Source: Gemmatimonadales bacterium
Lineage (GTDB): Bacteria > Gemmatimonadota > Gemmatimonadetes > Gemmatimonadales > GWC2-71-9
Reading direction: 5' to 3'
Length of the DNA: 64,000 nucleotides
Assembly: GCA_036004525.1 (NCBI GenBank)
Contig: DASYRJ010000040.1
Location: 5,810-69,809 of the forward strand
Shown here: positions 1-57,257 of the stretch, one piece after another
Layout: each line of letters begins with the position of its first letter
Numbering within the stretch: the first letter of the stretch is position 1
Notes under the pieces: model-generated
The model's input: the letters and a program-made list of their open reading frames with translations, nothing else
The model's database searches: none
Told to the model about the DNA's origin: nothing
Made by a program: the position numbers and the translations under genes

Positions 1-1586
1 ATCAGCGCACCAGGTCGAATGATCCGGGCCTGGATCTCGCCCCGCGCCTGCGCAGCCGCCACGAGCTCCTCGGCGGCGCACTTCCCCCAGGTGTACGCAC
101 CGAGTCGCTCGGCGCGAGCGGCACGGGGGGTGTGCTCCCCCTGCCGCTCCCACCACCCGTGCGGCGGGCGGAGCACGGAGATGCTGCTCACGTGGAGCAG
201 CCGGTGAACATCGGCGGCGGCCATGGTGCGCAAGAGGTGGCGGGTCGTGCCCACCGTGTTGCGCTCGTGCGCCTCGAAACCGCCGGCGGTCTCAGCCGCC
301 GCGTGCACGACGACCGCGGCGCCGGCGAAAACCGCGGGCGCGACGCCGTCGGCCAGGTCGGCGCGGATCCACTCGTGCACATGCGGATCGTCGGGCCGCT
401 CCGACCTGCCGATGCCTCGGATACGGAAGCCGCGCCGCGCGAGTTCGCGACAGATGGCGCGCCCGAAGAACCCGCCGGCCCCGGTGACCACCGCGACGGG
501 ATTCGAGGATGCCGCGTCGGCGGCGCGCGCCGGCGCCGTGGCGGGCCGCGAGACGGCGCTCCGGAGATTCGCCGCGAGGTGCTCGTACATGGCGGTCACG
601 CGTCGCAGATGATCGACACTGATCGGCGAGCGATCGCCTGTGGAGGCGGCGGCATAGAAATCCCCCAACAGCTCCGCCAGCCCCGGATAATCGGCGCCGC
701 GCAGCAGCCGCCTCGCGAGGCCCGTCGCGCTGCGCCACGCGAGCTGCGCCGCCTCGACGAAGGGGTTGAGGATCTTCTCCAGGGGGCTGGTGCCCTCGTT
801 CGCCGCGCCGAGCACGATCGCGCGGACGAAATCGGCCGTCAGCGACCCGTGCGCCCCGGCGACGGTCAGCGTCGACGCGACCGGACGGGCTCGCAGGCTG
901 ATGCAGAGGCGGCCGGTCACGTCGCCCGCCCGCAGCAGCGCGTACAGCGCCGTGGGCGTCGCCGTCACGTTGACGATCTCCAGCGCCGCCGCCGGGCCGA
1001 ACGTCTCGAGCACCGCCACGAGCGTGTACAACGGGTGGGGAAGCACATCCAGCAACTGCTCCGCGAGGGCGCGACCGGTCGACCGGTAGGGGTCGAGTCG
1101 TGGGGGCCGAAACGCAAACGTGCTGTCGACCAGCGTGACCGGCTTCAGCGCCGCGGCGCCGTCGATCAACCGGCGGAATGCGGGGTCCCGGACCAGCTGG
1201 TGCCCGGCGCAGATGAGCACGCCCTGCTGGCGCGCGAGCGCGAAGAGCGTCTCGGCTTCCTGCGGCGTCTCGACGAACGGCTTCTCGACGTACACATGCG
1301 CCCCGGCGAGCAGCGCCTGCCGTGCCGGCTCGAAGTGCGTCCCCGCGGGGGTGCAGATGTGCACGAGGTCCGGCCGCGCCTCTTGGAGCAAGTCGGAGAC
1401 GGTAGCATAGGCCCGGGCGCCGGCACGCCGGGCAAAGGCCTGCGCCGCGGCGTCCCTCGTGTCCTGAACGCCGACCACGCTGTGCGCCGTCGAGACACGT
1501 CGCAGCGCGTCGAGATGGTGGCCGGCCATCGCGCCGGCGCCGATGAATGCAATTCGCAGGGGTCGTGAGCCGCGGATGCCGGTCAT
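1..1586 (-). CDS. Gfo/Idh/MocA-type oxidoreductase fused to an NAD-dependent epimerase/dehydratase (SDR) domain; the 3' end runs off the window
   Basis: Not in the ORF track because it is open to the window edge. My translation from the ATG (complement of 1584..1586) reads MTGIRGSRPLRIAFIGAGAMAGHHLDALRR...AHVYVEKPF, giving a Rossmann GxGxxG plus the EKP motif of Gfo/Idh/MocA. Further on it reads ...NPVAVVTGAGGFFGRAICRELARRG, the SDR GxxGxxG motif. I saw no stop codon in this frame. Confidence 0.7.
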   Translation of the reverse strand, partial: MTGIRGSRPLRIAFIGAGAMAGHHLDALRRVSTAHSVVGVQDTRDAAAQAFARRAGARAYATVSDLLQEARPDLVHICTPAGTHFEPARQALLAGAHVYVEKPFVETPQEAETLFALARQQGVLICAGHQLVRDPAFRRLIDGAAALKPVTLVDSTFAFRPPRLDPYRSTGRALAEQLLDVLPHPLYTLVAVLETFGPAAALEIVNVTATPTALYALLRAGDVTGRLCISLRARPVASTLTVAGAHGSLTADFVRAIVLGAANEGTSPLEKILNPFVEAAQLAWRSATGLARRLLRGADYPGLAELLGDFYAAASTGDRSPISVDHLRRVTAMYEHLAANLRSAVSRPATAPARAADAASSNPVAVVTGAGGFFGRAICRELARRGFRIRGIGRSERPDDPHVHEWIRADLADGVAPAVFAGAAVVVHAAAETAGGFEAHERNTVGTTRHLLRTMAAADVHRLLHVSSISVLRPPHGWWERQGEHTPRAARAERLGAYTWGKCAAEELVAAAQARGEIQARIIRPGAL

Positions 1587-1757
1587 GTGTCCTCTCCCGT
1601 GCAAGACTGGCGCCACAGGCCAAAGCCGGGGGATGTGCCGCGCCCGGCCCCACCTGTTGCGTCGTCGCCATGCCCCCACGGGCTAGCCGGCCCGCGGCGG
1701 GCAGGTGAGGGCCAGGGGCCGACCGGCCCGCATGTTGCACCGACGCAGGGGAGAGTC

Positions 1758-2987
1758 ATGCGCATACTGATCACCGACGGGAACGAGCGGGCGGCGCTCG
1801 CCACCGCTCGATCCCTGGTACGGGCGGGACACGACGTCTGCGTGGCGGCTCCGACGCGGGTGTCCCTCGCGGGCGCGTCGCGCGCCGTGCGGCCGCTTCC
1901 GCTCGCCACCGATCCCCTCAGCGACCCGGCGGCGTACGCGGCGGAGGTGGGCCGGCTCGTCGCGTGGGAGAGCGCGGATGTGCTGCTGCCGATCACCGAC
2001 CCGTCACTCGAGGCGGTGCTCGAGCACCGGGCCTCGCTCCCGGCCGGCGTCGCCGTCCCGTTTCCCGATCTTGGCACGTACCGGGCCGCGTCCGACAAAG
2101 CGCGGATCCTCGCGCTGGCGCGGGAGTGCGGGTTCGGCGTGCCCGAGACGCGGATCCTCTCGGAGCCACGGAGCGCGCTTCCCGAGGCCGGCTTCTTCCC
2201 CGCGGTCGTGAAACCACACCGCTCCGTCGTCACCGCCGGCCGCGCCCGACGCAAGCTCGCCGTGATGCCGGCCGCCGACGCCGCTGCGTGTCGCCGAGCG
2301 TTGGCCGCCCTTCCTGCGGCGGCGTTCCCGGTCTTGCTGCAGCGGTGGGTCGCCGGTGTCGGCGAGGGATTCTTCGCGCTGCGCTGGGGGGGGCGGACGG
2401 TCGCCACGTTCGCGCATCGGCGCTTGCGGGAGAAGCCGCCCTCGGGCGGCGTCAGCGTGTACCGGGAAAGCATCCCCCTCGATGAGGCACTGGTCGGTCC
2501 CGGACTCCGGCTCCTCGACGCGCTCGGGTGGCAGGGCGTCGCCATGATCGAGTGCAAGCGGGAGGCGGCCACGGGCCGCCAGATCATCATGGAGGTCAAC
2601 GGTCGATTCTGGGGCTCGCTGCAGCTGGCCATCGATGCGGGCGTCGACTTCCCTGCGTTGCTCGTGCGCTGCGCGGCGGGGGAGACGCTCCCCGACAGCC
2701 GTCACTACCGCGTGGGGGTTCGGAGTCGCTGGTTCTGGGGGGACGTGGACCATCTGTACCTGCGCCTGCGTGACGGGAGGGGAGTGATCTCACGCCTCCA
2801 CGCCGTGCTCGCATTCCTGCGTGTTTCCCGCCGCGACGCGAGCGAGGTGTGGCGCTGGCGTGATCCGGCGCCGTTCCTCGTGGAGACCCTGCAGCGGCTC
2901 GGCGTGTTCACTCAACGTACAGGCGATGCCAGGTCGAGAAGCAGAGCAGCGCCCATAGAATCCGCTCCTGATTCTGGCGCCCTGTGA
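1758..2987 (+). CDS. ATP-grasp domain protein (carboxylate-amine ligase type)
   Basis: Lies in ORF 1587..2987. The likely start is the ATG at 1758 (MRILITDGNERAAL), preceded by GGGGAGAG. The GVAMIECK...IMEVNGRFWGSL block is typical of the ATP-grasp fold. Confidence 0.7.
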   Translation: MRILITDGNERAALATARSLVRAGHDVCVAAPTRVSLAGASRAVRPLPLATDPLSDPAAYAAEVGRLVAWESADVLLPITDPSLEAVLEHRASLPAGVAVPFPDLGTYRAASDKARILALARECGFGVPETRILSEPRSALPEAGFFPAVVKPHRSVVTAGRARRKLAVMPAADAAACRRALAALPAAAFPVLLQRWVAGVGEGFFALRWGGRTVATFAHRRLREKPPSGGVSVYRESIPLDEALVGPGLRLLDALGWQGVAMIECKREAATGRQIIMEVNGRFWGSLQLAIDAGVDFPALLVRCAAGETLPDSRHYRVGVRSRWFWGDVDHLYLRLRDGRGVISRLHAVLAFLRVSRRDASEVWRWRDPAPFLVETLQRLGVFTQRTGDARSRSRAAPIESAPDSGAL

Positions 2988-13235: not shown

Positions 13236-14251
13236 GGCGTCGCCCGCTCGAGGGCCAACTGGAACGCGGCGCGCGTGTGCCGTAGCTCATCCTCCGCCGG
13301 CGGAATGTCCAGAATGACGGAGCGGTAGCCGAGGGCGAGGTAGCGGGCGAGCTCCTCCCCGACCCGCTGGTAGCTGCCGACAAGGTACGGGCACATGGTC
13401 TTGTAGTTCTCGAAGGGGACGAGCCAGTAGGGGTGCTCCGCCGAGGGGGCGGTGCGGGCCAGGCCGGCGAGCTGGCGGTGCCACACGGAGTCCGAGACTT
13501 TCATGGCGAGTTGATGCGTCAACTGGCCGCGCCGGTCCTCCGGGAAGCGGGCGCGCGCGATCGCCCAAGCTTCGTCCCCGTCCTCCCGCGTGATCACGCC
13601 GACGCGCACCCCCGCGCCGACGCCCTCGTCGGGCTCGGCCTCCTCGTGCGGGGCGCGCGGGTACTTCACGGCCGTGGCGCCGATCGCTTGGGCCGCGCCC
13701 CGCCCGGCCTCCGACGAACCCGACACGAAGATGCCGGGGAACAGCTCGCGCGGCACCGCGGGCGTGAGCTGCAGGCCCTTCACGGCGTAAAACGCGCCAT
13801 CGAACGTGACGGGCCCTGCTCCCTCGAGCAGTCGCCGCACGATGAGCGCGTACTCGATGAGGCGGTCATAGCGCCGGTCGTGGGGCGTGGAGTCACTCAG
13901 CGCCGTCAAGTCGTTCTTGAACCCGCCCGCCACCAGGTTCAGGTAGACGCGCCGCCGGTGAAGCTGCGCGAACGTGGCCACCATCTTCGCGACGGCGTAG
14001 GGGTGCGTGTAGACCGGCTGCACCGCGACCAAGGGGCAGAGCGCCTCCGTGTGCTGCACAATCAGGTGCGAGACCAGCCACGGGTCCAGCTGGCGGTTGT
14101 CGCTGTAGACCAGAATGCCGCTGCACCCGTGGCGTTCGCTCCAGCGCGCAACATCGATCACCCGCTGGGCGTACGACGGCCCGGCGAAGTCGGCGACCTG
14201 CGGACAGGTGGAAAAGACCTCGAGTGCGAGGTCGGCGTGGTTATTGTGCAT
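13232..14251 (-). CDS. LLM-class (luciferase-like) flavin-dependent oxidoreductase
   Basis: Lies in ORF 13232..14332, with an ATG at 14251 (MHNNHADLALEVF). The TIM-barrel LLM-like blocks LNLVAGG and FVSGSS are present. Confidence 0.6.
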   Translation of the reverse strand: MHNNHADLALEVFSTCPQVADFAGPSYAQRVIDVARWSERHGCSGILVYSDNRQLDPWLVSHLIVQHTEALCPLVAVQPVYTHPYAVAKMVATFAQLHRRRVYLNLVAGGFKNDLTALSDSTPHDRRYDRLIEYALIVRRLLEGAGPVTFDGAFYAVKGLQLTPAVPRELFPGIFVSGSSEAGRGAAQAIGATAVKYPRAPHEEAEPDEGVGAGVRVGVITREDGDEAWAIARARFPEDRRGQLTHQLAMKVSDSVWHRQLAGLARTAPSAEHPYWLVPFENYKTMCPYLVGSYQRVGEELARYLALGYRSVILDIPPAEDELRHTRAAFQLALERATP

Positions 14252-14437
14252 GGGCGATCGTCTCCCCACCGGGCCGGCGTACGGCGACGTGATGCGAACC
14301 CGCTCGGCAGCCCACACTCCACCGCAAATCACATTCCGCGGTCACGGAGGTGTTGCGCCCGTGCATCGGCTGACGCTCGCACCCAGCGGCACGCAGGCGA
14401 TTTCCCTGAGGCACTCAACCTGCAGTGGGGGAGCGGC

Positions 14438-14926
14438 ATGATCGCCGGGATCGGACTCGACATCGTCGAAACGGAGCGGTTCGCGCACGCCCTCGGCTCC
14501 CTGGAGGGGCTGAGAAAGGGGGGGGGAGGGCACTTCGCGGAACGGGTTTTCACCCCCCGCGAACTGGAGGCCTGCGCGACCCGGGCGGACCGCATCCAGG
14601 CGCTCGCCGCGCGGTTTGCCGCCAAGGAAGCGTGCCTCAAGGCCCTGGGCTCGGGACTCCTCGGGAGCGCACTCCACGACGTGGAGATCCTGTCCAGCCG
14701 GTCGGGTGCGCCGCAACTCCGGCTCACGGGTGCGCTCGCCGAGCGCGCGCGGGCGCGTGGCGTTCGGAGTGCGCACGTCAGCCTGACTCACCAGCCGGGC
14801 CTCGCCGCCGCCGTGGTCATTCTGGAGGGGACGCGGATGCGCGCCGCGTCCCGGCCTCCGCGCCGCCGCGGCGGTCGGGGGGCTGCGAGGTGGACACTGG
14901 AAACGGTGTCGAGCGGCACATGGTGA
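14438..14926 (+). CDS. acpS: Holo-[acyl-carrier-protein] synthase (4'-phosphopantetheinyl transferase) with an Arg-rich C-terminal tail
   Basis: Has the canonical AcpS N-terminus MIAGIGLDIVE, plus FAAKEACLKALG and SLTHQPGLAAAVVILE. The tail overlaps the next gene's start. Confidence 0.8.
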   Translation: MIAGIGLDIVETERFAHALGSLEGLRKGGGGHFAERVFTPRELEACATRADRIQALAARFAAKEACLKALGSGLLGSALHDVEILSSRSGAPQLRLTGALAERARARGVRSAHVSLTHQPGLAAAVVILEGTRMRAASRPPRRRGGRGAARWTLETVSSGTW

Positions 14927-26473: not shown

Positions 26474-26731
26474 GTTGGGTTCACGCTCCGGCCCACTGCT
26501 ACGCAGGGATCGGGCCACAGTGTCGCACTATCGCAGCAGTGACCGAAACATGCGGAAAAACCGGTGGTTGCGCCTCGCAAACCCCCTGTTACGCCCCGCG
26601 TTTCTTGCACCAACCTGCATCCGCCGGAATCCCTTGGTGCACCGATTTGCGACATCGCGGAGGCGCAACAGGAGGCACGGTAGCGGCCGCCGAACTGCCA
26701 CACGGTATCGGACTTGCTACAAGCAGGCGCG

Positions 26732-29158
26732 ATGATTCCTAAACACCTTCCGGCGATTCGCGCCCAATCCGCCGCTGCCGCGGCCGTGCGGCGCGCGACC
26801 CCGCCGCATTCCCCGAGTCTGGCCGACGAAGACACCGGCCCCGATTGGCGGCGCATCGCGAGCGCGTTGTGGCGCTTCAAATGGGTAGTGATCCTCATGG
26901 CGGCCGCGGGCCTCGGGGCGGCCGTGGCCGCGACGCGCGTCCTGCGCCCCCTATACGTGGCCCAGGCGAACATCGTCATTGACGTTCCGGATCGCCGCGG
27001 CGGCACGGGCACCGATGCCCGAGGCCCGATCCGCTCGGGCGCGCTGCTCGACGCGGATGCCTGGGTCGAGCTGCTCCGGTCGTACGTCGTGCTCGACCAG
27101 GTCGTGCGTGATCTGCGCCTGTACTTGGAGGTCAAGGGGCCGGGGGACCGAGCGGGGTTCGCGAGCTTCGGCGTGAACGACGACTTCCGCCCGGGTGACT
27201 ACCGTCTGAGTGTGAGCCCCTCCGGTCGGGAGTACACTCTGTCCTCCGCCGGTGGTATTACGCTCGAGCGGGGGAGTGTCGGCGACTCGGTGGGCGGCCG
27301 GTTCGGCTTCCGCTGGGTTCTGGCGGCGGGCACCTTCGCGGCCGGCCGCACGGTCGAGTTCTCCCTGGTGCCGCCGCGCGACGCTGCGCTGCGACTCGGC
27401 GAGCAGCTCGATGTCCGAAAAGACTTGAACGGCAGCTTCCTGGCCGTGGAACTCCGGGGGACGAATCCGGTTCTGATCTCCAACATTCTGAACGCGGTGA
27501 CCAAGCGCTATGTGGACGTCGCGGCCCAGCTCAAGCGCGAAAAACTCACCGAGCTGACGAAGATCCTCGACGATCAGCTCACGACCGCGCAGCGGAACCT
27601 CGATGATGCCGAGACCGCACTCCAGGCATTCCGCACCCGCACCATCACCCTGCCGACCGATCAACCGGTGGGGGGTGGCGGCCCCGATGCGCGTGATCCG
27701 GTCCGCACGAGCTTCTTCGATATGCAGGTCGAGCGCGACCAGCTGCGCCGCGACCGCGACGCGATCGGGCAGCTGCTCGCTCAACCGGGAGACTCCGGCC
27801 TGCCCGTCGACGCGTTGTCGGCCATCGGCTCGGTCGCACACGCCCCGGAGCTGTCGAATGCCCTGAAAGAGCTGAGCGACAAGCAGGCGCAGCTGCGCGC
27901 GCTCCGGTACCACTACACGGATACCTATCCCCCGTTGCAGCGGCTCGTCGCCGAGATCGCCGTGCTCGAGCAGCGCACCATCCCGACGTTGGCGCAGGCC
28001 CTGATGGCGCAGCTCGCGACGCGGGAGACGGAGCTGGGGAGACAGGTGGGCGCCACCTCCCGCGATCTCCAGCAGATTCCCAGCCGTTCGATCGAGGAGG
28101 CTCGGCTACGCCGCAACGCCGACCTGACGGAGCAGTTGTACAGGACCGTAAAGGAGCGTTTCGACCAGGCCCGGCTCTCCGCCGAGGCGACGGTTCCGGA
28201 CGTCCAGATCCTCGACCCCGCGATCGTTCCGCAGCGCCCGGTCAAGAACACGGCGCCGCGGCTGCTGTTCATGGGGCTCCTCGCCGGCCTCGGGCTGGGG
28301 GTGGTGGGCGCGATCGTGCTGGACCGTGTCGACCCCCGGGTGCGCTACCCGGAGCAGGTGTCGCGCGACCTCGGCCTGCCGATCCTCGGCGCCGTACCGC
28401 ACCTCCACACCAAGGACGACCCGGCGGAGGTGGTCGAAGCGCTGCGCGGCGTGTGCCTCAACCTGGTGCACGCGCACGGCACGGCGGGACCGGGGCCGCT
28501 GCTCTTCACCCTCACGAGCCCCGGCCCGGGCGACGGGAAATCGTTCCTCGCGGCCAACCTGGCCCTCACCTTCGCCGATGGCGGCCACCGCACACTGCTG
28601 CTGGACGGCGATATCCGCCGTGGCGTGCTGCACCGCCGGTTCAACGGCAACCGGCAGCCGGGCCTGGTCGATTTCCTGCGTGGGGACGTGGGGCGCGACC
28701 AGATCGTCCAGCCGACGCCGTATCCCGGGCTCTCACTCATCGGCTGCGGGACGCGGACTCAGCGCGCGCCCGAGGTACTCGGTTCTCCGGCAATGGGCGA
28801 GCTGGTCGCGGGCCTGCGGCCGGACTACGACGTGATCGTGGTCGATAGCCCCCCCCTCGCTGCGGGGGTCGATCCGTTCATCCTGGGAACGGTGACGGGC
28901 GCGTTGGTCCTGGTGCTGCGCACCGGGCACAGCCACCGTGACGTGGCGGGCGCCAAGCTCGAGGTGCTGGAGCGCTTGCCGGTCCGGATGCTCGGCGCCG
29001 TGTTGAACGACGTCCCGCGCGGCGCCGCCTACGGGTACTACGCGTACTACTCGTACTATCTGCCCGGTTATGAGGCGGTGGACGAGAGCGACGGCCGGGG
29101 CGGCGGGGTGGAGGCGGGAGCGGGAACCGGGCGTCGGTCGGGCCCGCGCGTCGTCTAG
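26732..29158 (+). CDS. Polysaccharide co-polymerase (Wzz/GumC-like) fused to a BY-type tyrosine autokinase
   Basis: The ORF track starts at a TTG at 26714; the ATG at 26732 is preferred. It has a TM helix, a long coiled periplasmic region and a second TM. Walker A is SPGPGDGKS, A' is LLLDGDIRR and Walker B is VIVVDSPP. The tail is Tyr-rich (YGYYAYYSYYLPGY). Confidence 0.85.
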   Translation: MIPKHLPAIRAQSAAAAAVRRATPPHSPSLADEDTGPDWRRIASALWRFKWVVILMAAAGLGAAVAATRVLRPLYVAQANIVIDVPDRRGGTGTDARGPIRSGALLDADAWVELLRSYVVLDQVVRDLRLYLEVKGPGDRAGFASFGVNDDFRPGDYRLSVSPSGREYTLSSAGGITLERGSVGDSVGGRFGFRWVLAAGTFAAGRTVEFSLVPPRDAALRLGEQLDVRKDLNGSFLAVELRGTNPVLISNILNAVTKRYVDVAAQLKREKLTELTKILDDQLTTAQRNLDDAETALQAFRTRTITLPTDQPVGGGGPDARDPVRTSFFDMQVERDQLRRDRDAIGQLLAQPGDSGLPVDALSAIGSVAHAPELSNALKELSDKQAQLRALRYHYTDTYPPLQRLVAEIAVLEQRTIPTLAQALMAQLATRETELGRQVGATSRDLQQIPSRSIEEARLRRNADLTEQLYRTVKERFDQARLSAEATVPDVQILDPAIVPQRPVKNTAPRLLFMGLLAGLGLGVVGAIVLDRVDPRVRYPEQVSRDLGLPILGAVPHLHTKDDPAEVVEALRGVCLNLVHAHGTAGPGPLLFTLTSPGPGDGKSFLAANLALTFADGGHRTLLLDGDIRRGVLHRRFNGNRQPGLVDFLRGDVGRDQIVQPTPYPGLSLIGCGTRTQRAPEVLGSPAMGELVAGLRPDYDVIVVDSPPLAAGVDPFILGTVTGALVLVLRTGHSHRDVAGAKLEVLERLPVRMLGAVLNDVPRGAAYGYYAYYSYYLPGYEAVDESDGRGGGVEAGAGTGRRSGPRVV

Positions 29159-49843: not shown

Positions 49844-50907
49844 TAGTTGACCAGCTCCACCAGTGCCGGCGGTGCGCGCATTCCCCACACGTCGCGCATC
49901 GGGACGGTGACGATCTGGGGACGGTTGCCGGGCAGGCCGTCCCGGCCGTCGGGGCCACGGACACCGGCGCGGCCGGCGGGTCCGGCGGCGCCCGCGGTGC
50001 AGCGGGGGTCGCTCGCGGGCGACGCGGCGCCGCCCTTGCCGCCGGCGCCGCCCTTGCCCCCCGCGCCGCCGCTCCCGCCCTCACCGCCCGGCGTGCGCGC
50101 GTCCACGAGCCCGGCGAGGAACGGCTCTTCGGCGGGGGCGATGATGGTGATCTGGCCGCCGCGCCCGCCGGGGCCACCGGGGCTGCCGTTGCCGCCCGCT
50201 CCGCCGGGCCCGCCGGCGCCCCCGGGGCAGCCGGCGGTGCCTGCCGCGCCGGCGGTGCCGTTCTGCCCGTCGTCGCCGCGCACGCCGCGTGCCCCCCGCG
50301 CCTCGATGACCAGCCAGTCGGACGGCGGCACCGCCTGCGCATCGGCAAACACATAGAAAGGCGGGGCATCTTCGACTTCCACGCCCGCCACGAGCAAGCG
50401 CGAGTAGAACGGGGACCGCAAAATGCCGAGCCGCACGGTCACCTGCGGGCCGCTGGCGCCGGCGCCCGCGCCGCGGAACCCGAAGGCGTGCGGCATGCAG
50501 GCGTAGTCCGGCGTCAGCACGGTCGTCGTGGTGATTGAGGGCTTGGCCTTGAGCGTCGCGGTCAGCCGGAAGCCGGTGACCGCGCTCGTGAGCGCATCGG
50601 GGTCGGCGGCCCAACCGCCGCCCTCGAGGGGCGTCGCCTCCTGGCTGGTGCGCTCGAGAAACGTCATGTGGAGCCGGGGCGGCCGCTTGGCGTCGTAGCG
50701 CGATTCGAACGGGACGAGGGCGCCGTCGTTCAGGACGGCGGTGTATTGCGCGCCGAATGTCTCGCCGGGACAGCCCCGAGTGTTCGTGACCATCCTGATC
50801 TCGCGGATCTGCTCCACGAGCCCCGGGTCGGGAGCGAAGTCGGGGGGCGGCCCTTTCGGGCCGCACGCCGCCGTCAGGAAAACCGCTGCCGCGACCACCC
50901 GCTTCAT
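49828..50907 (-). CDS. Lipoprotein with collagen-like G-X-Y runs and a Gly-rich region
   Basis: Lies in ORF 49828..51138, with an ATG at 50907 after GGAG. It has the lipobox LTAAC. The G-X-Y runs are GARGVRGDDGQNGTAGAAGTAG and GAAGPAGRAGVRGPDGRDGLPG. Confidence 0.6.
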   Translation of the reverse strand: MKRVVAAAVFLTAACGPKGPPPDFAPDPGLVEQIREIRMVTNTRGCPGETFGAQYTAVLNDGALVPFESRYDAKRPPRLHMTFLERTSQEATPLEGGGWAADPDALTSAVTGFRLTATLKAKPSITTTTVLTPDYACMPHAFGFRGAGAGASGPQVTVRLGILRSPFYSRLLVAGVEVEDAPPFYVFADAQAVPPSDWLVIEARGARGVRGDDGQNGTAGAAGTAGCPGGAGGPGGAGGNGSPGGPGGRGGQITIIAPAEEPFLAGLVDARTPGGEGGSGGAGGKGGAGGKGGAASPASDPRCTAGAAGPAGRAGVRGPDGRDGLPGNRPQIVTVPMRDVWGMRAPPALVELVNYRGRR

Positions 50908-52355
50908 GGATTCTCCTCGCGCAGGAGACGCTTCGACTCGATGTCGAAGACCTGGACGCGGATCACGACGCCGGCACGGCGGGCGTCGACTACCCGCACG
51001 TGCACGACACTCCGGTCCTGACCGGGCCGATAGAGAATCCAGCTTCCCGCCGGTGCTGCGGCCGCTACTCCGGCACAGGGGCGGGACTTGGGCTTCGGCT
51101 GCTGGCCGGGGGGCGTGCCGGGGATCCACACGCGACACTCGCCGGGGTCGGGCAGATGGCCCGGCGGGACGTCGAGCGTCACCGCCGTGTTCGGCCCCGG
51201 CGGCTGCTCCGGCGGCCGCTGGTCCGGACGCGGTTGTTCCGGGGGCTTATTCTCGGGCGGCCGCTGCTCGGGCGGCCGTTGCTCTGGCGGCCGCTGCTCG
51301 GGCGGCCGTTGCTCCGGAGGGCGCTGCTCCGGCGGCCGCTGTGCCGGAGGTGGTTGCTCCGGGGGCTTATTCTCGGGCGGCCGCTGCTCTGGAGGGCGTT
51401 GCTCCGGCGGCTTGTTCTCCGGGGGCGGCTGCTGCGCCGGCGGCCGCGGCTCAGGCGGTCTTCCGATCGGCGGCTGGATGTCGGGCCGCTGGTCCAGAGG
51501 CCGGGGCCGCTCCTCGTTTTGCGGCGGTTCCTCTTCGCGGACCAGCTGCTCCGAAGCGATGTCGAAGATCCGAATGCGGGTGACGATGCCCGGCCGGCGT
51601 GCGTCCACCACGCGTACATGCACGACCCTGAGGTCCTCCCCGGGGCGGTAGACGATCCAGCTGCCCGCTGGTGCGACGGCAGCGATGCCCTCGCAGGGAC
51701 GCGACCTGGGCGGCGGCTGCTGGCCGGGCGGAGCGCCCGGGATCCAGACGCGGCACTCTCCCGGGTCGGGGAGGTGGCCGGGTGGGACGCCGAGTCTCCC
51801 GGCGTCGTCACGCGGTCTGTACTCGGGTGGACGCTGGTCCTCAGCAGGGGGCGGGCGGCGCTCCTCCCGAGGCCGGTCGTCGCGACGCTGCTCGTCCTGC
51901 GGCTCCTCTTCGCGGACCAGCTGCTCCGAAGCGATGTCGAAGATGCGGATGCGGATGACGAACCCCGGGCGCCGTTCGTCTACCACGCGAACGTGCACCA
52001 CTCTCCGGTCGTCGCCGGGGCGATAGATGATCCAGCTGCCCGCGGGTGCGACGGCCAGGATGCCCGTGCAGGGGCGTGACCGGGGTCTGGGCTGCCGCCC
52101 GGGCGGCGTTCCCGGGACCCACACGCGGCACTCGCCGGGATCGGGGAGGTGGCCGGGCGGGACGCCGAGCAGCACCGCGGTGTTAGGGGGAGGGGGATTC
52201 GGGTTGGGCCGCTCGGGCTCGGGGTAGCTGCGGGGTGGGGGTCTCGAGCCCCGGCGGTCCGTGTCCGGTGCCGGCTCGCGCACGATGATCGTTCTGGTGC
52301 ACCCGGCGAGCAGCAGCAGCCCGCCCAGGGTGAGGACCGTGGTGCCCTTGCGCAT
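50904..52355 (-). CDS. Lipoprotein with three copies of an uncharacterised ~95-aa domain separated by Pro-rich (PPEQR)n linkers
   Basis: Lies in ORF 50904..52415, with an ATG at 52355 (MRKGTTVLTLGGLLLLAGC lipobox). The repeated core is VPPGHLPDPGECRVW.PG.PPG.QP.P.SRPC...APAGSWI.YRPG.D..VVHVRVVD.RR.G.V.R..FDI.S..L.REE. Confidence 0.65.
   Translation of the reverse strand: MRKGTTVLTLGGLLLLAGCTRTIIVREPAPDTDRRGSRPPPRSYPEPERPNPNPPPPNTAVLLGVPPGHLPDPGECRVWVPGTPPGRQPRPRSRPCTGILAVAPAGSWIIYRPGDDRRVVHVRVVDERRPGFVIRIRIFDIASEQLVREEEPQDEQRRDDRPREERRPPPAEDQRPPEYRPRDDAGRLGVPPGHLPDPGECRVWIPGAPPGQQPPPRSRPCEGIAAVAPAGSWIVYRPGEDLRVVHVRVVDARRPGIVTRIRIFDIASEQLVREEEPPQNEERPRPLDQRPDIQPPIGRPPEPRPPAQQPPPENKPPEQRPPEQRPPENKPPEQPPPAQRPPEQRPPEQRPPEQRPPEQRPPEQRPPENKPPEQPRPDQRPPEQPPGPNTAVTLDVPPGHLPDPGECRVWIPGTPPGQQPKPKSRPCAGVAAAAPAGSWILYRPGQDRSVVHVRVVDARRAGVVIRVQVFDIESKRLLREENP
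50907..52184 (-). repeat. Three intragenic ~285-nt direct repeats (50907..51191, 51525..51803, 51900..52184)
   Basis: The protein-level triplication is visible in the ORF translation. It is mirrored at the DNA level, for example gatccacacgcgacactcgccgg / gatccagacgcggcactctcccgg / gacccacacgcggcactcgccgg. Confidence 0.75.
51205..51444 (-). repeat. About 16 tandem 15-nt units encoding PPEQR/PPENK pentapeptides
   Basis: The plus strand reads ctgctccggcggccg / ctgctcgggcggccg / ttgctctggcggccg and so on, in frame with CDS 50904..52355. A 120-nt higher-order duplication is visible (ttgttccgggggcttattctcgggcggccgctgctc occurs twice). Confidence 0.8.
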
Positions 52356-52480
52356 GATCAAGCTCCCTCGAGGACGGGCTCCAATGTAGTGTTTGGAGTC
52401 CGTGCCGTGGGTCACCCGAGCTTTCCCGCCGCTTCCGGCGCGATTAAGTTTGTGTTTCTTAGCGTCTTAGCGTCTGTCGT

Positions 52481-52555
52481 GGTGGCTGTAGCTCAATCGG
52501 TTAGAGCGCCGGACTGTGGCTCCGGAGGTTGCGGGTTCGATTCCCGTCAGCCACC
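52481..52555 (+). tRNA. tRNA-His: tRNA-His (anticodon GTG) with genome-encoded G-1
   Basis: Hand-folded cloverleaf: G-1, acceptor GTGGCTG/CAGCCAC, anticodon stem CCGGA/TCCGG, loop CTGTGGC, T-arm GCGGG-TTCGATT-CCCGT, discriminator C. No encoded CCA. Confidence 0.85.
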
Positions 52556-52606
52556 CTAACTACTAGACGCCGAGACGCCGGAGACGCCAAGATGCCGAGG
52601 TCTTAG

Positions 52607-52632
52607 ACGGCGGGTCCATGCGGGCCCGCCGT
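52607..52632 (+). terminator. Hairpin downstream of tRNA-His
   Basis: ACGGCGGG / CCCGCCGT stem with a 10-nt loop, followed by TCTTGTGG (a weak U-tract). Confidence 0.4.
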
Positions 52633-53029
52633 TCTTGTGGTCAGTCGGCGCCCTCCACGACCGCCAAATCTCTCCAAGTTCATCCCGGACCGGTTCCATC
52701 GTTTCTTCCATCGTCACCTGTCAGCCTCGTGCGCCGCGACCGCCGCCCAATCAAAGGCTCGAAGGACCCCAGAATGCATCAATGGCCGAGCGCGAGTCGA
52801 AGTGCGGCGAGGCTTACCCCAGGGTGGAGCGAGTCGCAAGGCTTTGCGCTGCCGAGCACGAACAGGTCGTTTCCGCCTGCGCCCCATGATGGGGTGACAA
52901 CAGTCACAGCCTACTCTGGCCCAAACGAGCAAGGTCTAGGGCCTCACGATCCGGTCACAACGTACCGCCTAAAGCAGAAAAGTCCTGCGCCCTCAAGAAC
53001 GAACATGATGCCCAAAGAGGAGGGCAACC

Positions 53030-53878
53030 ATGCCATACCAGGCCGAAATCAGTCGTAAGAACCCGGGCTGTTTCCTGTTTCTGGTCGACCAGTCCGAGTC
53101 AATGGAAGACCCCTTTGCCGGCGGAGACAATGGCAAAAAGAAGGCCGAGGAGCTGGCGACCATCCTCAACAAGCTCATTCATAATCTGTCCATCCGTTGC
53201 GCCAAATCGGACTCGATTTACGACTACTTCCACGTCGGTGTGCTGGGCTACAGCGAAGACAGCTGTAAACCGGCGCTCGGCGGTGAGCTGAGCGGCCGCT
53301 CGTTGGTGCCGATCAGTGAATTGGCCGGCAAGCCGTTGCGCATCGAAGAACGAGCCAAGCAATCGGACGATGGCGCCGGCGGGGTGATGGAGCAAACGGT
53401 GAAATTTCCGGTCTGGTTCGACGCCTATGCGAAGGGCGGCACTCCGATGTGCGCCGCGCTCAAGGACGCAACCAAGATTGTCGAGACGTGGTGCCAGGAG
53501 CATCCGCAGGGATTCCCGCCAATCGTCATCAACATCACCGACGGCGAGGCGACGGATGGAGATCTCGTTGCCGCGGCGCGGAAGCTGACGGAGGTCAGCG
53601 GCGCCGACGGTGAGGTGTTGCTGTTCAACATCCATCTTTCGTCGACGGCCGGGCCATCGATCGAATTGCCGTGCAACGCCGCCAAGCTTCCGGATCAGTA
53701 TGCCAAAGCGCTGTTTGAAGCCTCATCGACGCTCACACCGTTCATGGTTGCACGCGCGAAGGAGCTGGGTTTGCCGGCCGCGGACGACTCGCGCGGATTC
53801 ATCTTCAACGCGCAACCGTTGCACGTCATCCATTTTCTCGATATCGGCACGCGGCCGGCGAATGTGCGCCTGCGCTGA
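53030..53878 (+). CDS. von Willebrand factor A (vWA) domain protein, TerY-like
   Basis: Has the MIDAS motif LVDQSESM (DxSxS), GGTPM and TDGEATDG. A strong SD (GAGGAGGG) lies 5 nt before the ATG. Confidence 0.85.
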   Translation: MPYQAEISRKNPGCFLFLVDQSESMEDPFAGGDNGKKKAEELATILNKLIHNLSIRCAKSDSIYDYFHVGVLGYSEDSCKPALGGELSGRSLVPISELAGKPLRIEERAKQSDDGAGGVMEQTVKFPVWFDAYAKGGTPMCAALKDATKIVETWCQEHPQGFPPIVINITDGEATDGDLVAAARKLTEVSGADGEVLLFNIHLSSTAGPSIELPCNAAKLPDQYAKALFEASSTLTPFMVARAKELGLPAADDSRGFIFNAQPLHVIHFLDIGTRPANVRLR

Positions 53879-53885
53879 GCACTAG

Positions 53886-54713
53886 TTGGCCGCTCCTGCA
53901 GTGAGCCACGCCTCGGCGGCCAACACGTACGACATCAAGGCCTTTTGCTGCCCCAAGTCGGGCAACAGCGTGGAGGAGTACGAGGATGCATGGGCGCAGC
54001 GGCAAACTCGCACCGCCCCCCCCGCCCCCCCGGCCCCCCCGGGGGGGGGCATGCGCGTGGCGGTGGCCGATGGCGCCACCGAAAGCAGTTTCGCCAAGCT
54101 CTGGGCGGTGCTGCTCGCCGAAAGCTATGTGCGCAGTGAGCTCACCGGGGCGGAGTTTTTCGCGCGGCTTGGGGCCGCGCGACGCCTCTGGCGGCGCAGA
54201 TTGGCGGGACGCCCGCTCCCCTGGTTCGCCAGCGAGAAGGCCGAGCAGGGCGCGTTCGCGGCGTTGCTCGGCGTCCAGATCGACGCTCACCAGAACCGGT
54301 GGACGGCGCTGGCCGTTGGTGACTGTTGCCTCATGCAGGTCGATGACGTCGGTAAAGGGATGCGGGTGCTCAAAGCGTTCCCCTTGCAGCAATCGTCGCA
54401 ATTCACCATGAGCCCGTATCTGATCGGCTCCAGGTCGGACGGCGAACCACCGCACGAACGGATCCAAGTCAGCACGGGCAGCCTGCGCGATGGCGATATG
54501 CTTCTGCTCGCGAGCGATGCGATGGCTGCCTGGCTGCTCAAACGGCATGAAGACGGGCGACCATTGTGGAGGTGGCTGTACCGGAAGCTGAGTACGCCAG
54601 AGAACTTTGCCGCGATGGTCGCCTACGGCCGCAAGCATGGATTGCGCAACGACGACTTTACCCTGGTCCGCGTCATTCATCACGATGCACCGGTCGAAGC
54701 GAAGGAGAGATAG
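53886..54713 (+). CDS. PP2C-family serine/threonine phosphatase
   Basis: Has the motifs EEYEDAW, VAVADGATES, VGDCC and LASDAM. The start is the TTG at 53886 or the GTG at 53901. Confidence 0.75.
   Translation: MAAPAVSHASAANTYDIKAFCCPKSGNSVEEYEDAWAQRQTRTAPPAPPAPPGGGMRVAVADGATESSFAKLWAVLLAESYVRSELTGAEFFARLGAARRLWRRRLAGRPLPWFASEKAEQGAFAALLGVQIDAHQNRWTALAVGDCCLMQVDDVGKGMRVLKAFPLQQSSQFTMSPYLIGSRSDGEPPHERIQVSTGSLRDGDMLLLASDAMAAWLLKRHEDGRPLWRWLYRKLSTPENFAAMVAYGRKHGLRNDDFTLVRVIHHDAPVEAKER
54016..54049 (+). repeat. Homopolymer cluster C8-G-C7-GG-C7-G9 inside the phosphatase gene
   Basis: Read directly from the sequence as ccccccccgcccccccggcccccccggggggggg. It encodes APPAPPAPPGGG and is followed by an in-frame ATG at 54051. 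Confidence 0.95.
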
Positions 54714-54715
54714 CG

Positions 54716-55741
54716 ATGGGGGCTTGGCCGGACCTGACCGAATACCATGAGGCGGTTCAGCACCCGCAGAAGGCTTTTGCTGACCCAGGATTGAGAGCGG
54801 TCGCCCTCGAGCTCGATCGGTTCGGGATGCCCAAGCCGGCCACCGGCGCCAACGCCGTGGTCTACAAAGGCACGAAACCGGGCGGGTTCTTCTCGTTCAG
54901 GAAGACCTGGGCGATTCGCTGCTTCCTGCGGCCCATCAGCGACCATGCCGAAAGGTATGAGGCGATTTCCAGACATCTTCACAAGGTCAGCCTGCGCTAC
55001 GACGTGGATTTTCGGTTTCTCAAGCAGGGTATCCAAATCGGCTCCCGCTGGTTCCCGATCGTCAAAATGCAATGGGCGGAGGGGGACCTGCTGCACAGTT
55101 ATATCGAAAAGCAGCTCCCCTATCCCTGGTTACTGGCGACATTGCGAGCAAAGTGGGTAACACTCGTTCGCGACCTCGAAGCCGCTCGGGTCGCGCACGG
55201 CGATTTGCAGCAGGGCAATATCCTGGTGCGTGGCGGATCGTTTCAGTTGGTCGACTACGACGGCATGTGGGTGCCGGCCTTGAAGGGCCGCCACGCCACG
55301 GAAACCGGCCACCGCGCCTACCAGCATCCCGAACGGAGCGAGCAAGACTACGGGCCGGAGATCGATCGTTTTTCAGCGCTCGTCATCTATCTATCGCTGG
55401 CGGCGCTGGAGGAGGATGCCACCCTCTGGGAAAATTTTCATACCGGCGACAATCTGATCTTCGTGCGCGAAGATTTCCAGCAGGTGGGTCGGTCGGCGAT
55501 TTGGCAACAATTACGTCGTATCAGATCGCCGCAGATCGACCAACTCGCCGCTGCCCTGGCGACCATGCTGCAGCAGCATCCGATGAAGGTCGGCAATCTC
55601 GATAGCGTTCTCCAGAATCTGGCGAGCTTCAAATTCCCCACCTCGACTCCGGCGTCGACTCCGGCCCAGCGAGTCGCTCCCAAGCCGGCGCCCGTGCCGA
55701 GTTGGATAAAAGGGAGCGGTTATCGTAATTCGGATGACTGA
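54716..55741 (+). CDS. Ser/Thr protein-kinase-like protein
   Basis: Lies in ORF 54566..55741, with an ATG at 54716 after GAAGGAGAGA. It has the catalytic loop HGDLQQGNILV and the DFG-equivalent VDYDGM. Confidence 0.75.
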   Translation: MGAWPDLTEYHEAVQHPQKAFADPGLRAVALELDRFGMPKPATGANAVVYKGTKPGGFFSFRKTWAIRCFLRPISDHAERYEAISRHLHKVSLRYDVDFRFLKQGIQIGSRWFPIVKMQWAEGDLLHSYIEKQLPYPWLLATLRAKWVTLVRDLEAARVAHGDLQQGNILVRGGSFQLVDYDGMWVPALKGRHATETGHRAYQHPERSEQDYGPEIDRFSALVIYLSLAALEEDATLWENFHTGDNLIFVREDFQQVGRSAIWQQLRRIRSPQIDQLAAALATMLQQHPMKVGNLDSVLQNLASFKFPTSTPASTPAQRVAPKPAPVPSWIKGSGYRNSDD

Positions 55742-55794
55742 GGAGCCTTCCACGGCCGCCCCGGATTCTGTAACTTCCAGCCGCAGCACATCCT

Positions 55795-55867
55795 AGGTCC
55801 GTAGCTCAATTGGTAGAGCACCGGTCTCCAAAACCGGGGGTTGCAGGTTCGATTCCTGCCGGGCCTG
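55795..55867 (+). tRNA. tRNA-Trp: tRNA-Trp (anticodon CCA)
   Basis: Hand-folded: acceptor AGGTCCG/CGGGCCT, anticodon stem CCGGT/ACCGG, loop CTCCAAA, T-arm GCAGG-TTCGATT-CCTGC, discriminator G. Confidence 0.85.
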
Positions 55868-55887
55868 TGTGAATTACAACGACTTAC

Positions 55888-55919
55888 GCGCGAGGGCACT
55901 CACCCTCGCGCTGCTTTTT
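55888..55919 (+). terminator. Rho-independent terminator after tRNA-Trp
   Basis: GCGCGAGGG / CCCTCGCGC stem with loop CACTCA, followed by TGCTTTTT. Confidence 0.7.
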
Positions 55920-55955
55920 GTGTCCAATTCGCGTCCATTACCGAGGGGCTAAGCA

Positions 55956-57257
55956 ATGACACACCTCAGGCCTCTTGCCGCGGCGTTCTGGGCCGCCCTC
56001 ACCGTAGCGTCAGCTCCACTATTCGGTCAGACCGCAATCCCGAACACCCCCGCCGGAAAGGTGCTACGTGCCTGGGTCGACGCGTACAACAGCGGCGACT
56101 CCGCGCGCGTGGCGACGTTCTTCCGCACCTACTCTGTGGAAGACGCCCTTCGCGGTGCATTCGCATTCCGCAAGATGACGGGGGGGCTTGACCTGCTCAG
56201 CGTCCAGGTGAGTGAGCCGAGGCACGTTGAATTCATGACCCGATTCCGCCTCGGGCCGATGGTAGGCTACGGGGCGCTCGACGTGTCGGCGGCCGACACG
56301 AGTCGCGTGAGCGGCTACTTCTTCCCGCTCGGCATGAACGTCTCCGTGGACGACATTCGGATCGACGCGCCCACTCGCGAGCGCGTAGTCGGTCGTCTGG
56401 CCGCGCTCCTCGATTCGTTCTACGTGTCCCCCGAAGTCGGGAAGCGCATGAGCGACTCTCTGCACGCGCGCCTCAAGCGAGGTGTCTATGACAGGTACAC
56501 GAACGGCGCGACCTTCGCGATCCACCTCAGGGCGGATCTCGATGACATCGCTCACGACAAGCACCTGCAAATTCTCTACAGCCTGTTACCCCGAGGTCCG
56601 GAACCGCAACCGGATACGGTCACTCAACACCGGCGCGAGCGCGAAGCCGACTGCCCGGTCTGGGTGACCGAGCGGCTCGAGGGGAACGTCGGGTACCTAC
56701 GGTTCGACGGGTTTGTCGATCCGGCAGAGTGCGGGTCGACCATCGTCACGGCGATGACCGCCTTGGCCGAAACGAAAGCGCTCATCATTGACCTGCGGGA
56801 AAACGCGGGCGGCGGTAAAGCCGGCTCAACTCCTCTCCTCGAGTCGTACTTGTTTGACCGCCGTACTCATCTCAGTGACGTGCGGTTCCGTTATACCGGC
56901 GAAACACGGGAGCGCTGGACATTGGACTCCGTTGCCGGTGCGCGCTTCGGCGGGGAGAAGCCTGTCTATGTGCTTACTTCCGCGCATACGCTTTCGGCAG
57001 GTGAGGAATTGGCGTACGACCTGCACGCGCTCAAGCGCGCCACGATCGTGGGCGAGACGACGTCCGGCCAAGCCCATGCGACATTTGAAGCCCGCATTGA
57101 AAACCACTTTGCCATCCTGCTGCCCACCGGAAAGACGCTCAACCCGGTGACCGGTGCAGATTGGGAGGGCGTGGGAGTAGTGCCGGACGTGAAGGTGCCT
57201 GCGAGCGACGCACTAATCACGGCGCAGAGGCTGCTCCGCGAGAAGCTGCCGCATTAG
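55956..57257 (+). CDS. S41-family peptidase (tail-specific protease / IRBP-like)
   Basis: Has a signal peptide, LIIDLRENAGGG and TSAHTLSAGEE (Ser nucleophile region). Confidence 0.75.
   Translation: MTHLRPLAAAFWAALTVASAPLFGQTAIPNTPAGKVLRAWVDAYNSGDSARVATFFRTYSVEDALRGAFAFRKMTGGLDLLSVQVSEPRHVEFMTRFRLGPMVGYGALDVSAADTSRVSGYFFPLGMNVSVDDIRIDAPTRERVVGRLAALLDSFYVSPEVGKRMSDSLHARLKRGVYDRYTNGATFAIHLRADLDDIAHDKHLQILYSLLPRGPEPQPDTVTQHRREREADCPVWVTERLEGNVGYLRFDGFVDPAECGSTIVTAMTALAETKALIIDLRENAGGGKAGSTPLLESYLFDRRTHLSDVRFRYTGETRERWTLDSVAGARFGGEKPVYVLTSAHTLSAGEELAYDLHALKRATIVGETTSGQAHATFEARIENHFAILLPTGKTLNPVTGADWEGVGVVPDVKVPASDALITAQRLLREKLPH

Follow-up and report, generated by a model that had tools for sequence, protein, structure and literature searches.

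A homopolymer cluster in the PP2C phosphatase gene of a TerY-P-like triad from Gemmatimonadales is probably a young in-frame slippage expansion

Background

Do four long homopolymer runs, packed into the coding sequence of one phosphatase gene, form a genetic switch, an assembly error, or something more ordinary? The question is raised by a stretch of 64,000 nucleotides from a Gemmatimonadales bacterium, here called the window, in which the plus strand at 54016-54049 reads CCCCCCCCGCCCCCCCGGCCCCCCCGGGGGGGGG, i.e. C8 G C7 GG C7 G9. The runs lie in the middle gene of a triad encoding a vWA protein, a PP2C-family phosphatase and a Ser/Thr kinase. The initial annotation of this DNA, whose description of the tract is exact on direct reading, proposed either a slipped-strand ON/OFF switch, in which a frameshifted phosphatase leaves the kinase unopposed, or an assembly-error hotspot.

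Both switches of this kind and triads of this kind have been described. The G8 tract of pglX in the Pgl defence system of Streptomyces coelicolor phase-varies at 1e-2 to 1e-4 (PMC4365076), and homopolymer-tract phase variants, such as those of the glpK tract, are documented for Mycobacterium tuberculosis (10.1101/717272, PMC10334774). The TerY-P triad was first put forward as a metal-sensing phosphorylation switch, and its kinase-OB form was later shown to be anti-phage (PMC11090510, PMC7699616). In the kinase-kinase-phosphatase module (KKP) of Pf prophages, a PF13672 phosphatase is the antitoxin to toxic Ser/Thr kinases, and its inhibition triggers defence or toxicity (PMC11341870).

Methods

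A protein search with the window PP2C returned more than 1,400 relatives, and the taxon-named records among them are mostly from Gemmatimonadales or other Gemmatimonadota. The DNA of 114 related loci (L numbers below) was compared. Loop length was measured from the EYED[AS] codons to the [DN]GATE codons; both flanking motifs were located in 111 of the 114 loci, and the counts of loop alleles refer to these 111. An exact look-up of the window PP2C protein, with either start, gave no record in the contig index, and no relatives were found in the viral contigs searched.

Results

The phosphatase gene starts with TTG at 53886, or alternatively with GTG at 53901 (Table 1). Its product scores 21.6 bits against Pfam PP2C_2, for which the curated cut-off is 24, and searching PDB sequences with its alignment profile gave no match; fold comparison was used in its place. 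For the AlphaFold2 model (pLDDT 73.5, pTM 0.76) the top Foldseek matches in the PDB are all PP2C phosphatases (SpoIIE, RsbX, Stp1 and PstP), with probabilities up to 1.0 and TM-scores of only 0.35-0.46. Among 48 aligned sequences E33, D34, D62 and G63 are invariant, and D211, N255, D256 and D257 are conserved in at least 90%. Judged by these acidic metal-binding motifs, the structural model and the fold search, the predicted PP2C assignment of ORF 53886-54713 holds.

Table 1. Features of the triad and of the homopolymer cluster in the window
Feature	Position	Strand	Basis or remark
TerY-like vWA protein gene, first of triad	53030-53878	+	PADLOC TerY 1.4e-100, full length; Pfam VWA 25.7 bits
PP2C-family phosphatase gene, middle of triad	53886-54713	+	PADLOC PP2C 9.3e-27; AF2 model; conserved motifs
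Ser/Thr kinase gene, third of triad	54716-55741	+	PADLOC STK_OB 4.8e-72; Pfam Pkinase weak
Homopolymer cluster C8-G-C7-GG-C7-G9	54016-54049	+	Direct reading; four runs of at least 7 within 34 nt
Three tandem 9-nt units GCCCCCCCC GCCCCCCCG GCCCCCCCG (Ala-Pro-Pro x3)	54015-54041	+	TRF and sister-allele comparison
C8 run	54016-54023	+	
C7 run, first	54025-54031	+	
C7 run, second	54034-54040	+	
G9 run	54041-54049	+	First G belongs to the preceding CCG codon
GGG GGG GGC (Gly3 block)	54042-54050	+	Sister allele is GGC GGC
In-frame ATG (Met56), first residue of the motif II beta-strand	54051-54053	+	Orthologue comparison

The cluster encodes an insert flanked by EYEDAW (motif I) on one side and by MRVAVADGATES / RVAVADGATES (motif II) on the other, and the alignment with orthologues agrees with the earlier placement of an insertion between the first and second PP2C metal-binding motifs. 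The model predicts beta-strands at residues 34-41 and 55-63, joined by a loop of residues 42-54 (RTAPPAPPAPPGG) in which the pLDDT is lower; motif I (E33-D34) starts the first strand and motif II (D62-G63) ends the second. The (APP)3GGG insert is thus predicted to sit in the beta-hairpin turn between the ED and DG metal-binding motifs. Because an antiparallel hairpin carries motif I at the start of one strand and motif II at the end of the other, this turn would lie at the end opposite the metal site. The position is also visible in the PADLOC PP2C profile, whose match begins at position 8-9 in insert-free orthologues and at position 30 in the window protein, so that the insert falls between profile positions 29 and 30.

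The in-frame ATG directly after the cluster, which the initial annotation had pointed out, is Met56 of ORF 53886-54713. The codon is ATG only in the clade of the window (the window, L025, L035, L036, L008 and L084). As most orthologues have Ile (ATC) or another codon there, it is not a conserved internal start, and a product begun at this site would be without motif I (E33, D34).

The cluster itself is a tandem repeat, (GCCCCCCCS)x3, followed by G9. TRF reports a period of 9 with 3.1 copies and 94% matches at 54015-54042, with the unit GCCCCCCCG. The codons of the ORF over this region are GCC CCC CCC / GCC CCC CCG / GCC CCC CCG / GGG GGG GGC, translated as APPAPPAPPGGG, i.e. A-PP-A-PP-A-PP-GGG. 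The unit, with a length divisible by three, is therefore present in at least three head-to-tail copies, and the copy number differs among close relatives, as in coding tandem-repeat expansions.

The window has a GC content of 70%, and its total of 12 G/C runs of at least 7 nt is ordinary for the composition, with a mean of 11.3 expected per window under a third-order Markov model. Four of the 12 lie inside 54016-54049. None of 300 Markov-simulated windows had four runs within 40 nt; the highest number was two, reached in 11 of the 300. The clustering is thus non-random, and tandem repetition of the 9-nt unit accounts for it.

Isolated runs occur in ordinary-looking genes elsewhere in the window: a G9 at 14518-14526, in the region of the ACPS phosphopantetheinyl transferase domain of ORF 13286-14926, a C8 at 28849-28856 in a Wzz/GNVR/ParA-like ORF (26684-29158), and a G7 at 56180-56186 in an S41 peptidase gene. 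Homopolymer error or slippage could be gauged against them within the same genome.

The C7/G9 junction was said to be self-complementary, and an inverted repeat (I4) is indeed found there; however, neither the RNA fold (z -0.14) nor the DNA fold (z -0.86) predicted for the tract exceeds dinucleotide shuffles in stability. A terminator-like T-run 3' of the tract was not found either, and I rejected a hairpin or cruciform as a special structure at this site.

Codon pairs that build C-runs are under-used in the ORFs of the window, with 8 CCC-CCC pairs against about 19 expected and 13 CCC-CCG pairs against about 27, for an ORF set that is roughly defined. Since the insert is built of exactly these under-used pairs, it looks like a recent mutational product in which substitutions may not yet have broken up the runs.

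The orthologues, which the initial annotation had suggested aligning, do differ in the length of this loop, from 45 to 78 nt, and relative to most of them the window carries an insert. In 92 of the 111 loci the loop is 51 nt long and has no run above C5, typically reading ...ACC CCA GTC GGC ATC..., i.e. T-P-V-G-I. The other 19 have loops of 45, 48, 57, 63, 66, 75 or 78 nt, and C-runs or G-runs abound in every one of these variant alleles (Table 2). At the level of the protein, most orthologues read T-P-[VAG]-G-I and the closest relatives T-APP-GG-M; further in-frame loop alleles among the proteins compared include PTRTRTPGG, ETPAG and PSRTG. About a dozen loci have a C8, C10 or G8 run in the loop, every one of them in frame, and all 111 loci keep the reading frame across it.

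Table 2. Variant loop alleles with long homopolymer runs
Loop allele	Runs	Found in
TPPTGG	C8	L006, L037-40
PPPTGG	C10	L042
TPPPGS	C10	L046, L053
TAPPGG	C7	L035, L036, P0001 cluster
TPPAASPGG	C8	L008
TPAGGRGG	G7	L014
AHAGGGGEGGGS	G8...G6	L003, L004
AHAGGGGGGGGG	G8-G5-G8	L033
T(APP)3GGG	C8, C7, C7, G9	window, L025

Outside the loop, the PP2C DNA of the window is nearest to L036 and L035 (95-96% identity), both of which have one APP unit followed by GGC GGC. The protein P0001 and 11 members of its cluster (12 of 12) likewise read (APP)1. The 9-nt unit is thus present once in L035, L036 and P0001 and three times in the window, in agreement with the slipped-strand origin that was first proposed for the cluster. 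Among the 114 fetched loci, only L025 shares the tandem 9-mer of the window.

Other pairs of relatives show the same kind of change. Outside the loop L108 shares 99% identity with L109, and it is shorter by 6 nt; the L006 group shares 97% with L051, which has the 51-nt allele, and is longer by 6 nt; L042 equals L038 at 100% but for one A-to-C change that turns C8 into C10. At least seven independent changes of loop length can be counted, all multiples of three. By my own calculation, the chance of seven in-frame changes would be about (1/3)^7, or 5e-4, if the frame were unconstrained. The loop is a recurrent in-frame indel or slippage hotspot in Gemmatimonadales, and selection probably keeps the phosphatase in frame.

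An independent Gly-rich insert of 24 nt is present in the same loop in a different lineage (L003, L004, L024 and L033, from Gemmatimonadales SMAG_U5929 and GCA_017353795.1), which also has an AAPPAPPAPA insert near the N-terminus that contains a C7 run. Over 1,093 nt, L033 and L004 differ at seven positions (99.4% identity), three of them within the G-rich tract, the length of which is the same.

Several database proteins could be mistaken for frameshifts at the loop. P0082, P0084 and P0085 are short (216-220 aa) and start with 'MAVADG', and I rejected them as loop frameshifts since the DNA of L001, L003 and L004 has one continuous frame; these short calls are start-site choices or contig edges. 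P0096 and P0088 are partly in the wrong frame and regain that of PP2C far past the loop, around ARRLWRR and SELAG, respectively. They too were rejected as frameshifts at the tract, as the shifts lie well downstream and the records are short or of low quality. Occasional frameshifted or erroneous PP2C copies thus exist, though not at the site of the tract.

The second carrier of the expanded allele, L025, is a public contig (DASXTV010000086.1) of a Gemmatimonadales metagenome-assembled genome, with the same 34 nt base for base; the k141_ in its name suggests a MEGAHIT assembly. Compared over window positions 52995-54419, it is 100% identical from 53708 to its end inside the PP2C gene at 54419 (712 nt), and its 40 differences are confined to 53005-53707, in the vWA gene or shortly before it. 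Its upstream flank is non-homologous to that of the window. Given the unrelated flank, the 40 differences and the end inside the PP2C gene, L025 is not the window's contig. Taking it for an independent strain with an invariant tract is only partly valid, as 712 nt are identical; it is one and the same allele, set in a mosaic or otherwise different context, rather than an independently diverged strain, and the expanded allele, found in these two sequences only, is effectively one allele. The mosaic similarity points to recombination inside the cassette or to a contig that is chimeric between strains.

These observations bear on the second of the two initial proposals, that the cluster is a sequencing or assembly artefact with other true tract lengths or another copy number. 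Homopolymers and GC-rich repeats are error-prone, and the L025 contig ends about 370 nt downstream of the tract. However, the tract is in frame, its 9-nt periodicity is exact, one-unit alleles of relatives offer a plausible precursor, and the finding of all 34 nt unchanged in another contig, whose upstream sequence differs, argues against an artefact. I consider this explanation highly improbable.

The vWA, PP2C and Ser/Thr kinase genes are adjacent and co-directional, as in TerY-P triads, and make up an operon of three genes, in which the kinase ATG follows the PP2C stop by 2 nt. In gene order and in the matches to three PADLOC models the window resembles the TerY-P triad of Anantharaman et al. 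(2012), Gao et al. (2020) and PADLOC, and in contrast to it, the window kinase of 341 aa covers only positions 2-297 of the 562 in the STK_OB profile, i.e. its kinase half. Two forms of the TerY-P kinase, with an OB fold or a zinc ribbon, are described in PMC11090510. At the C-terminus of the window kinase I found a Pro/Ala-rich tail, and neither the OB fold of the stand-alone defence form nor the zinc ribbon of the CoCoNuT-associated form. The kinases of the relatives L001 and L003 are similar in size (341 and 359 aa). As only the kinase half of the profile is matched, I call the triad TerY-P-like, lacking OB fold and zinc ribbon; a defence role is predicted for it.

The triad is flanked by tRNA-His (52482-52556, +) and tRNA-Trp (55794-55868, +), and the GC content here is 63% against about 70% elsewhere. 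An Rfam search of 52400-56000 found nothing beyond these two tRNAs, and there is no integrase inside the cassette. Two relatives, L018 and L030, have the flanks of the window, with 94% nucleotide identity in the S41 peptidase and 95-97% in both tRNAs, and carry the triad in the opposite orientation relative to these flanks. Their cassette is just 85-87% identical to that of the window, as against 92% for cassettes in unrelated contexts (L005, L035, L036, L046). Because the flanks are shared but the cassette is reversed and less alike than cassettes from elsewhere, the triad looks as if it has been exchanged or inverted at a tRNA-flanked hotspot.

Upstream of the triad, at 52890-52909 and 139 nt before the vWA ATG, the window has a palindrome GTGA-N6-TCAC, the half-sites of which resemble those of Crp/Fnr-type regulators. 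Of 65 distinct upstream regions from related loci, 38 have the motif, placed 68-201 nt upstream, against a background of 0.088 per kb in 717 kb of loci; it comes in two versions, GGTGACAACAGTCACAGC and GGTGATCGGGATCACGAC. It is probably an operator controlling the triad.

Two further ORFs of the window were recorded. A proline-rich ORF of 503 aa on the minus strand (50904-52415) has three copies of a module of about 120 aa (GVPPGHLPDPGECRVW...VVHVRVVD...FDI), runs of PPEQR/PPENK repeats, and a weak, sub-threshold match to an Extensin-like Pfam family; it has 31 PP dipeptides, yet its longest C-run is 6. ORF 1569-2987 (+), about 50 kb from the triad, has a borderline ATPgrasp_Ter match (28.5 bits, cut-off 29.1). 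ATPgrasp_Ter is the ATP-grasp of a biosynthetic pathway associated with Ter operons.

Discussion

In this study I find that the cluster is most probably a young, tolerated coding tandem repeat that arose by replication slippage in an insertion-tolerant surface loop of a TerY-P-type PP2C. An ancestral loop ...ACC CCx GTC GGC ATC... (T-P-V-G-I) would first have become the C-rich ACC GCC CCC CCG GGC GGC ATG (T-APP-GG-M), after which the 9-nt unit GCCCCCCCG would have been duplicated twice. The loss of an interruption of the G-run by one C-to-G change, together with a gain of 3 nt, could then have given T-(APP)3-GGG-M. The net gain is about 7 residues in the loop; all changes are multiples of three and every catalytic motif is kept. 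As the turn is predicted, on a model of medium confidence, to lie opposite the metal site, the enzyme with the insert would be expected to stay functional. In its pure units of a multiple of three, its copy-number differences and its place in a surface loop, the tract resembles coding microsatellites and the low-complexity loop insertions made by slippage; I see no essential difference from this category, and it is the one that the tract fits.

Alternatively, the cluster may be a true contingency locus, in which PP2C is put out of frame, reversibly, by a slip of one nucleotide in any of the four runs (G9, C8 and the two C7), giving rise to sub-populations with unopposed kinase. A +/-1 slip would indeed frameshift the phosphatase, as the initial annotation held: the loss of one nucleotide from G9 leads to a stop after 174 codons and the gain of one to a stop after 84. 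The four runs lie inside an ORF and are long enough to slip, their lengths are within the range that phase-varies in other high-GC bacteria (pglX G8 of Pgl/BREX, the M. tuberculosis tracts), slips could be frequent given the rates of the pglX G8, and the gene is part of a defence-type triad. However, none of the 111 related loci is out of frame, including the dozen or so with C8, C10 or G8 in the loop, so that length alleles of the in-frame kind are found and out-of-frame ones are not. The tract is also not conserved: it is missing from nearly all orthologues, with the tandem 9-mer kept in the window and L025 only, and this sole other carrier has it at identical length, while the (APP)1 sister allele is the same in 12 proteins. 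G9 and C8 runs are, moreover, found in ordinary genes of the window (the PPTase and the Wzz-like protein). These points speak against the ON/OFF switch, and I regard it as unlikely.

The known switches differ from the window in the gene that is affected. As in pglX (Pgl, BREX-type), a run of G8-G9 is located inside a gene of a phage-defence operon that also codes for a kinase and a protein resembling a phosphatase, and the host is GC-rich (about 70% GC here); a 1-nt slippage inactivates pglX (PMC4365076). However, ON and OFF variants have been observed for Pgl, and its tract is in a toxic methyltransferase; the tract in the window is a lineage-specific 9-nt-repeat insertion in a presumed negative regulator, with no OFF allele among 111 loci. 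The M. tuberculosis tracts are likewise short coding C/G homopolymers in a GC-rich genome and give reversible frameshifts; there, frameshifts recur across thousands of isolates, whereas the comparison with the window yields in-frame changes only.

The known defence switches are placed in an effector or specificity gene, and by analogy with KKP the loss of a kinase-restraining phosphatase would be self-harming. The KKP phosphatase belongs to the same Pfam family (PF13672) as the window PP2C; KKP differs in having two kinases and no vWA protein. Because the KKP phosphatase restrains toxic kinases, a frameshift in PP2C may be harmful rather than a neutral OFF state, which fits the in-frame-only pattern. 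Frameshifted products of the gene are probably selected against, as the phosphatase most likely restrains a toxic kinase, and I infer that the tract is a mutational liability (changes of +/-9 nt, slips of +/-1 nt) rather than an evolved switch.

A bolder version of the switch has the four tracts make an antitoxin-like PP2C stochastically switchable, with a minority of cells with unopposed kinase serving as anti-phage bet-hedging via a negative regulator. I consider this very unlikely. If true, such cells might be dormant, pre-activated or self-sacrificing, in a phylum, Gemmatimonadota, that is little-studied; and if +/-1 heterogeneity were shown in reads, the locus would be an example of phase variation on a negative regulator of a kinase-based defence.

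The insert could also have a function of its own, either as an EF-P-dependent translational brake that would reduce the output of phosphatase compared with that of kinase, through the PP/PPG motifs of (APP)3G, or as a polyproline element for docking or spacing. Ribosomes stall at PPG and PPx motifs in the absence of EF-P, and with only 2 nt between the PP2C stop and the kinase start, the translation of the two genes may be coupled. Gly- or Pro-rich inserts have appeared in the same loop of other lineages (L003, L004, L033, L014, L008); however, these are unrelated to one another in sequence (Gly-rich vs. Pro-rich) and in length, for which neutral low-complexity growth is a better fit, and the allele is rare, most orthologues being without any insert. 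I therefore think a functional insert doubtful, and return to slippage in a tolerant loop as the preferred explanation.

Read in this way, the cluster indicates that in GC-rich genomes the codons for Pro and Gly build homopolymer clusters by ordinary in-frame slippage, and that the length of a tract alone is no proof of a contingency locus. The locus also offers a natural series of loop lengths (45 to 78 nt) in a phosphatase that belongs to a defence-type triad, and this series could be used to examine how much insertion the hairpin tolerates.
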